From Octopus vulgaris (Eukaryota), in contig OX597827.1 of the NCBI GenBank assembly GCA_951406725.2, forward strand, positions 50,592,001 through 50,656,000: a DNA stretch of 64,000 nt, given 5' to 3'. The notes under the pieces were generated by a model. The model was not told where the DNA came from, searched no databases, and saw only the letters and a list, made by a program, of their open reading frames with translations. The translations under genes were made by a program, and so were the position numbers. How positions within the stretch are numbered: position 1 is the stretch's first letter; each line of letters opens with the position of its first letter. Below, piece after piece: positions 1,296-62,705 of this stretch.

Positions 1296-1488
1296 ACCGT
1301 TGGCGATTTTTTTCCTCCGTCTTCCCTTCTCTGGATCTTTCCTTTTCCTATGTTTCTGACGAAGAGCTCCGCTCGAAACGTTAAACCCTTCTTCTTCCCT
1401 TCCTTCCTGAGCGTCCAATAATACTATATTTGTTCCACGTCCTCGTGTTGTTGTGTTTTCTCTTTGTGTTTTCATGTTTCGATTAACT
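1296..1488 (+). mobile_element. Short hammerhead-bearing repeat, family B (Penelope pLTR/retrozyme-like)
   Basis: Shares GAAGAGC..GCTCGAAAC..CCTGAGCG..ATAC with copies at 37727-37900, 62578-62705 and 63921-64000; 3' end abuts (TA)n. Confidence 0.6.
1352..1386 (+). ncRNA. Minimal type-I hammerhead ribozyme motif (family B)
   Basis: GTTT-CTGACGA-A-GAGC(TCC)GCTC-GAAA-CG-TT-AAAC: helix I GUUU/AAAC, canonical CUGANGA and GAAA boxes, 4-bp helix II, palindromic helix III ACGU. Confidence 0.7.
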
Positions 1489-1577
1489 TTATATATATAT
1501 ATACACGATATAAACGACGGGTTTCTTTATATATAAAGAATTGTTTTACATGAGGAGTTGTTCCTCAGTAATTATCA

Positions 1578-1770
1578 TTCTTTTACATGTTTTAGTCCTT
1601 AGACTGTGATTATGCTGGGGCACTACCTTGGAGAATTCTTTAGTCTAACGAATCGATTTCCGTACTTACCTTTTAAGATACTTATTCTAGCGGTCTCTTT
1701 GCCAAACCGCTGTGTTGCGGGGACATAAACACAACACCTGTTCTCAAGCAGTGTGGGGGACAAACACACA
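1578..1770 (-). mobile_element. SINE family S1, 3' half (diverged)
   Basis: Reverse complement aligns by eye to the 3' half of the full copy at 31640-32052. Confidence 0.7.
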
Positions 1771-1885
1771 CACACAATATATATATATATATATATATAT
1801 ATATATATATATATATATATATATATATATATATAAGAGAGAGAGTGTGTGTGTGTGTGTGTGTGTGTGTGTAGAAGGTTGATAT

Positions 1886-2130
1886 GTATAAGGAAAAAAA
1901 CCAAGGTAGAAAATGTTAAAATAATTTTATAATAAAAAACATTTTAGTACCGGTTTCAGCCATTGAGACTTTTTCTACTGTAAAGTATGGAAAACAATTA
2001 AATTTTGGAAAAATTAAATGAAAAGTTTTTAAAAAGAATATTTGCATAGTACTCAAATACGAGGAGCATTTTCCTTGTTTCAGCCTGTCTCTGTCTCTCT
2101 TGTTTACTCTTGTGGGTTCGAGGTCGTTGT
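1886..2130 (-). mobile_element. Short hammerhead-bearing repeat, family C
   Basis: Colinear with 47795-48050 (TATAAGGAAAA..CAAGGTA..TTTTAGTACCGGTT..GACTTTTTC..GGAAAAATTAAATGAAA..CATTTTCCTT..TGTCTCTGTCTCTCT). Confidence 0.65.
1946..1979 (-). ncRNA. Degenerate minimal hammerhead motif (family C, U3:A8 core)
   Basis: Minus strand AG-TAGAAAA-AGTC(TCAAT)GGCT-GAAA-CCGG-TA-CT. One core lesion (U4>A); the sister copy has TTGAAAA. Confidence 0.45.
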
Positions 2131-5100
2131 GAATTCTTGGCAGAGGAGGAGGAGGAGGAGGAGGAGGAGAAGAAGAAAAGAATGCGGGAGTGGTATGATA
2201 GTAGTAGGATGTTAAAGGTTCAAGTGATCTAAAAGTGACTCGTTTTGGGTTATAGTAGTGGTTGGGTTAAATACATTTCTTCTTTTTTAATAGTCCCTTC
2301 GCAGGTGTTCCTATATTTAAGAAATTCTCCTAAGATGGGATCGTAAATGACTTACTCCAGCTGTCGTATGCTGCAGGTCAAAACATTTATGGAATCTGGA
2401 AAGGTTGATTTTGTTTGGATTTTGGTTATGCATGTGTATACGCTGGTATACCCTACTTGTTTGTGTTTGCATGTGCGTGCATGTGCGTTTGTTAACACTT
2501 GCAGAGAGAGTTAATTCGAAGTGATAACACTACTATAGCATTGGAAACATGTGACAATCAAACCTTAAACAAAGGTTGTGCGATAACCAGCAGTGAAACA
2601 GTATTAATGTACAGCAGCAAATCAAAAAAACAATTAAAAAGAGCTGGGAAAATTGCGAAGACGAAACAGATTGGATTTAAGAGTTCAAGAGTAAATTTAA
2701 ATTAAATTAGTGGAATGCATTTCAGTGAAAGTGAAGTATGAAGTAACCATGAAATGAAAGATTTAGAACATATGAAAAAAAAAAAAGGAAAGAAATTAGA
2801 GAGGAGAAGAACAAATGGTGGTAAGGAGAAACGAGAGATCTGAGTGTCAAGAAAATGAAGAACAATACGAAAGATTATAATGAAAGTAAACAAAAAATAG
2901 TGACGAAAATAACGGCTTTGGCGAGAAGATTGTGATGTTTGAGAATTAGAAGAAGGAAAGTTTGTGATTACAGTCAACTATACTCGTCTAGATTATCACT
3001 AACAGCATGTTCTTTTTACAACTAAAAAGGAATGTAATTAAATGGAATCCCTATTAATTTCAAATACACGCAGATATATATATATATATATATATATATA
3101 TATATATGCATACACAGACACACACATATATATGTATGTATACATGCATACACACACACAAACATACACACACACACACACACACACACACACAGGCGGA
3201 AACCGAAAGGAGCCTGTCGAATATATATATATATATATATATATATATATATATATATATATATATGCATACGTACATACATACACATATAGAGAGATAG
3301 GGGAAGTAGAGGGAGAGAAAGACAGATATATGTATGCATATATGTATGTCTATAAACAAATAAATATATAGATACAAAGATTGGGAGAAATAGTGACTGA
3401 GAGAGAGAGAGAGAGAGAGAGAGAGATCAGTGTAATTAACTATGCTGGTTATTACACATTTTTTGTATTGACAGTGTGCATTTGCAAATGTTAATCTGTA
3501 TTGATTTAAGTGTGCACATTCAATTATGTTATTAAGCAGTCGGCTTCAAAATCATGTAGTTTCGGCTTCAGTCGAACTGAATACTTCTGAGTCGAAACCA
3601 GTGCCTGTTTCTTACGAGTTCCAATGGAGTTGCCCAATCAATGGTACGTTTGACGTGTATCTGGCCGGGGCGATTTAAAAGGCTGAAACAATCATATGTG
3701 TAACAAGATATTCAAACTTCTTGAAAGTTGTCCTTCGTAATTTAGATATAAGTTTTTAGTGGCTTCCATTGATTTACGATTGATCTGTCGACTGACACTC
3801 AAGTACAGACGCACAGTCCCATACACACACCCACACTCACCCATTTATGCATAATAATATACCTGTAGATGTGTATGCCTGTGACAAATACAGATATGCA
3901 CACATTTCTTAAGCAACTGGATATTGCTTACAAAAGAGTAGGAGCAGTAAGACGAAATGGAAAAGAAACAGACAAATTTGCACATGGTCGATTATAAATA
4001 CGGTGGTTACATATAAAATATAGCCTAGAGTACATCTACACACAAATAACTAAGTTCAAAACAAAGTATGAGAAAAGATATTCCTATTATTCTTTTAAGC
4101 TTTCCTTTTCGTCTGTGCTTTTTTTTTATCAAAATCTCGATGAAGATCCTGAATTAGTAGAGCTTCTCAATATTGTATGAAGTTATAAATCGTTTGGAAA
4201 GTACAATGGCCAACGGATACAACTAGCAACAATGGGAAGCAAATTCTTGGGAAAACATATATAGAGAGGCAGAAGAAAGATACAAAAATGAAATTTCTAC
4301 TTGGCTGGATTTCTTGGCATAACTTCTAGGGGCTGATAGTCCTAATGTAATGTACCCTTAGAAAATTCTAATTAATGAAAAATGACACCATCGTATATAG
4401 TAGTAGGGAGTATGTATGATCTTAGACCATAAACATCAGAAGAAGTCAATATAAAATTTTGCTGGGGTTTCCTCGCCTATCTTCACAAGGCCAAATCATT
4501 AAAACTAATGATTTTTTCATTAAAGGTGTAATTATAATTAATTAAATGTGTAATATAATTAATTAGACATTTTTTTATTCCTACATTAAATATATTAGCC
4601 TTACTTTTCTAAAATAAAAATGGAAATCGCAAACACACTTAACTTAAAATCTTTCATACTTTACAAGTGCTGTTACATTTAAAGATTTACTCGTACATGC
4701 ATGCAACAACATTTAGTGATGATACATACGTACATATCAGCATACGTATAGACATTTACAGATATGAATTTTCCTGTCCCCTCCTTTACTTTATGCTATT
4801 GAGTTTCTACTGTTCTCTCTTATTCCTCTTACCTCTCTCACTCTCTCTCCCGCTCTCTCCATCTCTCTCTATATATCTCTCTCTCTCTCTCTCTCTCTCT
4901 CTCTCTTTCTCTCTCTCTCTCTCTCTCTCTCTCTCTCATGCTGTTCCTCTTATATTCCTTCAATAGTATTGTGTTGTTATGTCAAGGTATAGAATATATT
5001 GTCTTTTATCCTTACATTGAGCTTTCATTTATTGAATTCTTTCTCTCCCTGTCGAACTGTTTTCTATTCCTTTACAATTATCCCTGTCGCGTTGTTGTTA

Positions 5101-61388: not shown

Positions 61389-61427
61389 CTAAAATATTTT
61401 CATAGCGTCTTGCAACCCTTTCAATAG
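61389..61427 (-). ncRNA. Degenerate minimal hammerhead motif (family E, U3:A8)
   Basis: Minus strand CTA-TTGAAAG-G-GTTGC(AAGAC)GCTAT-GAAA-ATAT-TT-TAG; helix I CUA/UAG, helix III AAUAUU; lesions at position 9 and in helix II. Confidence 0.4.
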
Positions 61428-61699
61428 TTGTTGACGCTGTCCGTTAGCCAAGCTGCGTTCTTTTTGTTCGTGCGCATGTGTGTGTATGTATATACGTATG
61501 TATGCATGCATGTATGTATGTATGTATGTATGTATGTATGTATGTATGTATGTATGTATGTATGTATGTATGTATGCATGTAACTGTGTGTATGCATGTA
61601 TGTATGTGTGCGTATGTACATCGGTTAGATAACATTATATATAATGAAACCAGTAGTGCCTGCTCTAGATATAGAAGCAAAAGTTGGAATAGGATACAA

Positions 61700-62230
61700 A
61701 GACCTTGTGTCAAAGTAAACAGGGTGAACACGTGGTATAGAACAGAAAAATATCAAGGAGTGATGTTTGTAGAGGCCACAGGCCACGGAGAACTAGCTCG
61801 TAGGTTTAGGAAAGCTCTGAAGGAGACCAAACTCAACATTAACATTGTTGAAAAGCCAGGGAACTGCATCAGATCACAACTATGTAGGAGGTACCCCTTC
61901 GAGAATACCATATGCACCAATGCTAACAGCATGGTATGGAGGATTAGCCCTGGCATTAACTGTAGAACTAGAAATGTAGTCTTCATAGTCTACATCATAG
62001 GATCCATAGAAAGTACTTGTAAAGATATGAACATGACATACATAGGTGAGACATCTAGAAGCATTGCGGTAAGACAATATGACAACACTCCATCCTCTAG
62101 CAAAATACCAAGGACCAACATGGTGACAACCTGGGTCAACTTGACACCTGCATTTTATCCAAGCATCCAAAGGATCCAACACTCAGACAAATACAAGAGT
62201 ACGTCCTCATAAATGAAACATCCCCAGTAC
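61700..62230 (+). pseudogene. Penelope-like element linker plus GIY-YIG endonuclease fragment
   Basis: WYRTEKYQGVMFVEAT..GELARRFRKAL..IVEKPG..PF....C....NCRTRNVVF..C....TYIGETSRSIAVR; frameshifted afterwards. Confidence 0.85.
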
Positions 62231-62577
62231 GAAATAGGTACTAAATATAGGTAGTAGATGTTCATAACCCCATACCCACAGTTTAAATTTATATACAAGT
62301 AGAATAGTTAGATGGCTGTTATCTAGATGTATGTACGTGTGTGTTTGTGTACACATCTTTATGTATATGCACATGTATATAGGCAAATGGATATGAAAGT
62401 AAACAGATAGACACACAAACGGATAGGTACATAGATAATATGAACAGACAAGCACACATACACACATACACAAATGAAGACTGAAACACATGACCATATA
62501 CACACACACATTATACATATATATATATATATATATATATATATATATATATATATATATATATACATATATATCTG

Positions 62578-62705
62578 TGTCGAAGAGCGTAGGCTCGAAA
62601 CATAAAATACTTTTTCTATTTCTATTCCTGAGCGCTATACTAATACATTTGTTTGTTTCTACTCCACCTGCTTTCGTCTTTCGTTTACTTTTGTAAACTT
62701 TCTCT
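62578..62705 (+). mobile_element. Family B hammerhead repeat, 5'-truncated inside the ribozyme core
   Basis: TGTCGA-A-GAGC(GTAG)GCTC-GAAA-CA-TA-AAA..TTCCTGAGCG..TACTAATACAT..CCACCTG..TTCGTCTTT. Confidence 0.6.

Follow-up and report, generated by a model that had tools for sequence, protein, structure and literature searches.

Hammerhead ribozyme motifs in dispersed repeats of Octopus vulgaris as the likely 3′ ends of Penelope-like elements

A 64,000-nt stretch of the Octopus vulgaris genome (positions 50,592,001 to 50,656,000 of contig OX597827.1, GenBank assembly GCA_951406725.2), referred to here as the window, includes eleven sites within short dispersed repeats that resemble hammerhead ribozymes, and raises the question of whether these are genuine ribozyme sequences and which elements left them there. 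The window is AT-rich animal DNA with 118 tandem-repeat entries, nearly all of which are microsatellites. The explanation that we consider probable is that the eleven motifs are minimal type-I hammerhead sequences that fall into five unrelated groups and are likely to be the 3′ ends of Penelope-like elements, present either as pseudo-long terminal repeat (pLTR) remnants or as short derivatives. Support for it was found in the layout of the motifs, their excess over chance, the structure of the repeat families, the microsatellites at their 3′ ends, an inverted stub, and the intact family cores of two of the groups, C and D.

The repeats were assigned to families, designated A to E, by self-comparison of the window. 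Family A has three copies of up to 650 bp that are ~75–80 % identical, and family B has three copies and one tail at the window edge. Two copies each were found for families C and D, the latter together with a 24-nt inverted stub, and family E consists of one ribozyme-bearing copy and one tail-only copy (11895–12017). The flanks had been noted to look unrelated between families, and nhmmer comparisons between the family groups agreed, giving no match at E<1. Homology between D and E, which had been suggested by eye, was unsupported by the same comparison. The individual copies and pieces are as follows:

1352..1386, + strand: family B, intact minimal hammerhead; C3:G8 core at 1356–1362, 4-bp helix II, 4-nt palindrome, UU site, 4-bp helix I
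37798..37833, − strand: family B, broken motif; core position 6 is U, (TACA)n reached by the tail after 76 nt
62575..62612, + strand: family B, decayed motif (B62578); disrupted core, no remaining palindrome or helix I, (TA)n truncating the 5′ end
63921..64000, − strand: family B tail that runs to (TA)n; its ribozyme would be located past the window end
1942..1984, − strand: family C, broken motif; U3:A8 type, 6-nt palindrome, UA site, A at position 4, element ~1882–2129
47850..47896, − strand: family C motif (C47854); U3:A8 core at 47885–47879 intact, first two GAAA letters exchanged, element ~47790–48045
6970..7020, − strand: family D, intact minimal hammerhead; G3:C8 core at 7013–7007, 5-bp helix II, 6-nt palindrome, UU site, 7–8-bp helix I
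7045..7068, + strand: family D, 24-nt inverted stub; helix I 5′ strand and G3:C8 core, head to head with the copy at 6970
47652..47706, + strand: family D, decayed motif; C3 facing C8, two helix II mismatches, unit ~47645–47790 ending in a short TA run
8633..8721, + strand: family A, broken motif; long helix II region, G at 15.1, G17, element 8102–8750, (TA)n 36 nt past the cut site
25173..25261, + strand: family A motif with boxes intact; C3:G8, 8-nt palindrome, UA site, 6-bp helix I, element ~24880–25290
33964..34051, − strand: family A motif; core-adjacent pair of helix I mismatched, element 33930–34564
61389..61427, − strand: family E, decayed motif; U3:A8, G at position 9, weak helices, the sole ribozyme-bearing E copy

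The original prediction was of about 11 motifs of hammerhead form. The layout (helix I, 7-nt core, N, helix II, GAAA, palindrome, UH and helix I) is indeed recognisable at all eleven coordinates, but only in three copies, B1352, D6970 and A25173, are the core, GAAA box, palindrome, UH site and helix I all intact. Each of the other eight is altered at one or more places in a core box or a helix adjoining the core. The palindrome standing for helix III is 4 nt long in B, 6 nt in C, 6 nt in D and E and 8 nt in A. The features of a minimal hammerhead, namely helices I and II around the core, an extra nucleotide after A9 and a G10.1–C11.1 pair, are all present in B1352 and D6970. In B, C and D, the extra nucleotide and the G10.1–C11.1 pair match the published consensus, and both lie outside the demands of the descriptor used below. 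Pairing between core positions 3 and 8 differs between families, as had been anticipated, with C:G, U:A and G:C all found. The lowest-energy fold of D6970 is the hammerhead layout, with a stability no greater than that of shuffles. The adjacent stub at 7045–7068 is predicted to pair with the D6970 core in a read-through RNA (−34 kcal/mol), by which D6970 would be silenced.

The further claim that the ribozymes are of the minimal type I holds, by sequence, for B, C and D but not for A, which is not minimal because 58 nt separate the core from the GAAA box and which, judged in the same way, is a hammerhead-like long-helix variant. The claim that each of the five families carries a ribozyme also survives in part. 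A motif is present in every group from A to E, but for E this rests on one decayed copy, and family E is doubtful as a minimal hammerhead. As a separate observation, the 530 bp upstream of the A motif (8102–8630 and 34050–34564) have a near-common start in two copies and include protein-like open stretches on the opposite strand that have no family match.

A strict descriptor, consisting of N3-U-G-A-N-N8-A with a Watson–Crick 3:8 pair, helix II of at least 3 bp, GAAA, a perfect palindrome, UH and helix I of at least 3 bp, was matched three times in the window, at 1352 (B), 6970 (D) and 25173 (A). For comparison with chance, 200 dinucleotide shuffles in 300-nt blocks were used. Two strict cores with a short helix II were observed against a shuffle mean of 0.04, a count reached by none of the 200 shuffles. 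When the helix II region was allowed to extend to 90 nt, three were observed against a mean of 0.255 (reached by one shuffle), and when one core mismatch was allowed, five were observed against a mean of 0.595 (reached by none). The motifs are thus more frequent than in shuffled sequence, a comparison on which the original prediction had been staked. In a looser run of 12 shuffles, with one mismatch and a long helix II both permitted, six were observed against 2.7, and degraded long-helix matches are therefore weak on their own.

Most of the 3′ ends run into (TA)n-type repeats, as had been noted. In eight of the eleven copies the cut site has the start of a microsatellite no more than 110 nt away, compared with 16 % of random positions (P ~5e-5, the 110-nt cut-off having been chosen after the data were seen). 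In all three A copies it is found 36–38 nt past the cut site, and the pyrimidine-rich tail of B1352 reaches (TA)n ~107 nt downstream. D6970, E and B62578 have no microsatellite within 110 nt. A preference for (TA)n has been published for Hydra, Naiad and Neptune elements (PMC8557442). An inverted partial copy is present at the 5′ end of one of the eleven window motifs (D6970), and joints to the opposite strand near the D 5′ end were found in single contigs in each of three public sequencing runs (X1, X2 and X6, see below). The D6970 stub and these joints match the inverted truncated copies that have been described for Penelope elements (PMC8557442, PMC8969392, PMC4209133).

Two further arrangements were seen at the tails of D copies. 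D47652 and C47854 stand tail to tail over one short TA run (47780–47800), as if sharing a target. The tail of D6970 runs straight into the 3′ fragment of a long interspersed nuclear element (LINE) with a restriction-like nuclease (6395–6900, − strand), which ends in (ATC)n and is presumably Dong/R4-like. Related LINE fragments are found at 5921–6349 and 20311–21430.

Families C and D were examined at the family level using contigs from four public runs (X1, X2, X6 and X21), representing two organisms, that were aligned at 80 % likeness to positions 47620–48100. This region samples the decayed D copy and the decayed C copy, so that the test covers families C and D only. The runs contributed 9590, 9508, 4498 and 686 aligned contigs, respectively. 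Run X21 is only guessed to be RNA and its 686 contigs were not used as evidence of expression. The depths given are sums over contigs rather than copy counts, and only relatives that align through a position are counted. No accumulation of molecule ends was listed at the cut site, something that contigs are in any case unable to reveal.

In all four runs, every ribozyme-breaking letter of D47652 and of C47854 was replaced in the aligned relatives. Position 3 of D is G in 97, 97, 75 and 100 % of depth across the four runs, and neither C8 nor the other core and palindrome positions have a listed change reaching 15 %. The two helix II mismatches of D are repaired in 92–97 % of depth, and the helix I wobble becomes a Watson–Crick pair in 56–84 %. 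In C, the two exchanged GAAA letters are correct in 94–100 % of depth and the U3:A8 core has no listed change reaching 15 %. Helix II of C is partly variable; at one position 47–99 % give a Watson–Crick pair, and in three runs 25–30 % have a letter for which the pairing partner cannot be seen. As the relatives keep or restore these cores, the family core is U3:A8 in C and G3:C8 in D. Family consensi without the core boxes had been named as evidence that would count against the ribozymes, and the majorities of both C and D carry intact boxes.

The summed depth of D peaks at 4.7 million at 47705–47721 in X1, compared with ~14–70 for single pieces. This hints at a D copy number of the order of 1e4–1e5, summed depth not itself being a copy number. 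The figure is of the same order as that obtained by extending two D copies in 64 kb to a genome a few gigabases long, where the size is assumed and the window was chosen for its motifs.

The three Penelope coding fossils reported earlier in the window are all present:

61613..62243, + strand: Penelope-like coding fossil with the end of the reverse transcriptase (RT) thumb, a cysteine linker and a GIY-YIG nuclease; frameshifted
13556..14064, − strand: second, more decayed Penelope-like fossil of the same type
37208..37640, − strand: C-terminal part of a Penelope-like nuclease; carries the CxxC and CxH motifs known from the Hydra clade

A HMMER search with the fossil at 61.7 kb gave 205 relatives at E≤0.001. 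The long relatives of the 61.6–62.2 kb frame carry RT motifs, the cysteine linker and the GIY-YIG end, and also match the fossil at 13.6–14.1 kb. Weak Pfam matches to RVT_1 and GIY-YIG were found in the relatives, below the cut-off. From their motifs we take the fossils at 61.6–62.2 kb and 13.6–14.1 kb to be Neptune-like. The one at 37.2–37.6 kb resembles GIY-YIG fragments. Word-index protein searches with two of the fossils gave no matches, and Pfam identified nothing in the window frames besides a DDE_3 transposase (E 3e-11), which belongs to a Tc1/mariner-type transposase fossil at 46487–46987 on the + strand.

The original prediction proposed looking for linkage of the motifs to Penelope open reading frames (ORFs), and none of the three fossils is tied to a motif. 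No motif is found downstream of the fossils at 13.6–14.1 kb and 37.2–37.6 kb. B62578 is 335 nt behind the 61.6–62.2 kb fossil on the same strand, but lies across a microsatellite and shares no upstream sequence. E and B37798 are upstream of fossils, with a microsatellite between. In metagenome contigs, a pattern built on the B body retrieved the Acropora-type Neptune pLTR ribozyme family at 120 loci, of which 37 have the standard core and 46 are not animal-type. Neptune-like protein matches were found at two of the 120. An inverted partial copy is located just upstream, head to head, in 23 of the 74 animal-type loci (clearly in 18), and the B-like loci show the same picture of orphan stubs as the window. 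The exact D pattern was not found in metagenome or viral contigs, nor were the exact B and A patterns in viral contigs. Three viral matches to the exact C pattern were without the core and were judged to be due to chance.

A number of results speak against working hammerheads of Penelope origin. No physical tie between any motif and a Penelope ORF was found in the window, and the 530 bp upstream of the A motif gave no Penelope protein match with queries that were Neptune-like only. Among the 74 animal-type B-like metagenome loci, RT and GIY-YIG motifs are found upstream in one, with at least 1 kb upstream in 36. In focused scans of the three intact motifs, the Rfam hammerhead covariance models gave no match at E≤10, and the folding z-scores of the isolated intact motifs are unremarkable. 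The expected palindrome-paired dimer was not obtained in the two-copy fold of B1352, and the palindrome duplex of D is very weak (−0.2 kcal/mol). The long helix II of family A has no covariation among its three copies and competes with another fold. In X6, 25 % of the D depth is without G3. A Penelope origin of the motifs is likely, with no linkage in the window. Strong indirect ties come from the resemblance of B1352 to a Neptune pLTR ribozyme of Acropora, the Schistosoma-type core of C, the Hydra-clade frame of A, the B-like metagenome loci and the inverted partial copies.

If the motifs are Penelope 3′ ends, the ribozyme would have acted in source elements, in whose tandem RNA a pair of copies joined through the palindrome would build helix III, probably with the help of protein. 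The GIY-YIG nuclease would nick an AT-rich microsatellite and the RT of the element would copy into (TA)n-type repeats. Copying would start at a fixed distance 3′ of the ribozyme and would usually stop early, giving ribozyme-bearing stubs that later decayed, and the single dispersed copies would be silent passengers. Sequence from either side of the cut site is retained in the stubs, so that uncleaved or multimeric RNA probably served as the template. It has been reported that single minimal hammerheads do not cleave and that dimers cleave slowly (PMC4209133). The ribozyme of the Anolis Penelope element needs the protein of the element, and its cleavage is dispensable for insertion in vitro; reverse transcription of this element starts ~111–118 nt into the ORF, just past the ribozyme, and a C3G/G8C double change partly restores cleavage (PMC11167929). 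Truncation at the 5′ end probably explains families A (at least 650 bp), B and C. D probably spreads as a short unit of ~150 bp. The G3:C8 pair is probably a compensated, functional variant that was kept in the source element.

It is a tentative proposal, to which we would give somewhat less than an even chance, that D represents a natural working G3:C8 hammerhead present in tens of thousands of ~150-bp non-autonomous Penelope copies. A rival reading, in which D, and perhaps B and C, are free-standing non-autonomous mini-elements that are transcribed on their own, still use their ribozyme and are mobilised in trans by Penelope proteins, appears rather unlikely; it corresponds to the original prediction less the tandem retrozymes. 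Immediately upstream of helix I the summed depth of D is reduced ~tenfold, and the loose ends that precede 47654 are alike in no more than the closest dozen letters (agreement 0.44–0.48, among the ends listed); together these suggest that D is a short unit with a preferred start. The drop could, however, be explained by upstream divergence of D47652 itself, and severe 5′ truncation, which is normal for Penelope elements, gives the same picture (PMC8969392). One X2 contig joins the D end back to its start in a head-to-tail dimer, but in the window no tandem repeat array covers any motif. D seems to be far more abundant than the coding fossils and non-autonomous pLTR derivatives have been published (PMC8557442; 10.64898/2026.07.22.740005), whereas the A and C copies share 150–530 bp upstream of the motif.

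It is doubtful, too, that the G3:C8 family is catalytically dead or nearly so, its source having drifted and still amplified since insertion needs no cleavage. The Anolis experiments would allow this, as insertion in vitro is unaffected by mutating the ribozyme and the engineered swap rescues only partly (PMC11167929), and D has a UU site and a weak A/U palindrome. In the B-like metagenome family a U4C core is as common as the intact core that matches it (24 compared with 18 of the 120 loci, L004–L123), and two of the three B copies in the window have U at core position 6 (37823–37829, − strand, and 62577–62583, + strand). These counts suggest that dead-core subfamilies can amplify, and U6 may mark one that did so. 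Against a dead core in D, the G3:C8 pair requires two compensating transversions, and in both organisms the majority of the D family retains helices I and II, the palindrome and the other core letters intact, a pattern suggestive of selection on the fold.

That the motifs are chance matches within ordinary AT-rich repeats is very improbable: although eight of the eleven copies fail the strict descriptor, loose long-helix descriptors give several matches in shuffles and Rfam gave no hammerhead match, the observed counts were reached by at most one of 200 shuffles, the family majorities restore exactly the ribozyme positions and B is near-identical to a published Penelope ribozyme, so that for B, C and D this explanation is refuted by these results and it may apply to E alone.

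Several other repeats are present in the window. A family resembling short interspersed nuclear elements (SINEs) is found at 12915–13343, 19366–19585, 48990–49196 and 5748–5921, and its copy at 12965–13339 is a 185-bp tandem dimer. A two-part repeat with a central microsatellite is very abundant (more than 10 copies) and is clustered at 31.5–33.7 kb:

25810–26877, 31563–33743, 35012–35346, 41851–45167 and 57651–57856: copies of the two-part repeat

An Rfam scan of the whole window gave no hammerhead among the best 150 of 321 matches, which included microsatellite-driven microRNA matches only. The best of these spurious matches originate from 33443–33578, a long palindrome of the form (CT)n(TA)n(AG)n with complementary unique flanks.

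The feature is thus real, to judge by the evidence above, and of a known kind, with a D core variant that is abundant and apparently undescribed in nature. Scattered minimal hammerheads left by Penelope elements were already described in 2014, and one from an octopus Penelope element followed in 2021. The addition made here is a high-copy natural G3:C8 core, in place of one previously met as an engineered partial rescue. In the hammerhead, the 2′-OH of position 8 is the proposed general acid. If D is a working G3:C8 ribozyme, three different 3:8 pairs would stand side by side in one genome, at a density well above published counts, and the three pairings offer a natural comparison of whether cleavage matters to the spread of Penelope elements. 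Since descriptors fixed on C3:G8 or U3:A8 would miss D, genomic ribozyme counts may be low. Some repeats classed as 'unclassified SINE' may be Penelope ends. In one repeat annotation paper for Octopus vulgaris, neither 'ribozyme' nor 'hammerhead' appears in the main text. The load of one ribozyme per 6 kb that had been proposed is overstated, as intact motifs number three per 64 kb and the majority of copies are damaged and solitary; according to earlier reports a lone minimal hammerhead does not cleave as a monomer, thousands per genome have already been published, and a large active ribozyme load is not implied.

The closest known counterparts are the minimal hammerheads in Penelope pLTRs described by Cervera and de la Peña in 2014 (PMC4209133), who reported thousands of lone copies per animal genome, with several families in each and a U3:A8 variant. 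The window motifs share with them the type-I layout, the palindrome for helix III, the extra nucleotide after A9 and a frequent U17, as well as the occurrence of several unrelated families per genome, mostly as single dispersed copies, and the U3:A8 variant (family C). Lottia and Crassostrea provide molluscan examples. The density of motifs in the window, if typical, would exceed the 4,000–9,000 per genome in coelacanth and Xenopus. The differences between B1352 and the Neptune pLTR motif of Acropora digitifera are confined to helix I, a single letter of helix II, loop II and position 17, and the family C core is equal to that of Schistosoma mansoni family 4 (Cercyon). Among the 56 representatives in Fig. 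S3 of the same paper, 53 are C3:G8 and three U3:A8, none is G3:C8 or from a cephalopod, and none has a helix II insert as long as that of family A. A natural U3:A8 core also appears in Perreault 2011. Every core in the ribozyme table (S2) of Craig et al. 2021 is C3:G8 (PMC8557442). In the literature compared, which was covered in part, G3:C8 was met as an engineered change only (PMC11167929, PMC3884650), with no natural G3:C8 core found there.

Hydra-clade elements have a U-TGC...GCA-U frame in common with family A, and share with the window a ribozyme ~100–200 nt from the 3′ end, a T-rich tail and (TA)n targets, and the CxxC and CxH nuclease motifs seen in the 37.2-kb fossil (PMC8557442). The ribozyme sequence of one member from another octopus, Hydra-1_Obim of Octopus bimaculoides, is unlike all five window groups (PMC8557442). 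Animal non-LTR retrozymes are likewise non-coding, hammerhead-bearing and related to Penelope pLTRs, and solo monomers of them occur (PMC7229834; Li et al. 2026, 10.64898/2026.07.22.740005). They are defined by tandem units of 150–450 bp, mostly canonical type-I ribozymes and circular RNAs (PMC7229834; 10.64898/2026.07.22.740005), whereas the window has neither a tandem array nor a canonical ribozyme. The description of the motifs as retrozyme-like was accordingly set aside, because none of them sits in such an array. The Poseidon element of Anolis, PAc, has its ribozyme shortly upstream of the 3′ end of the copy and AT-rich targets, as here (PMC11167929). The G3:C8 core that in PAc was a laboratory mutant with partial activity (PMC11167929) is found in D, with no ORF attached, as the natural majority of a family.

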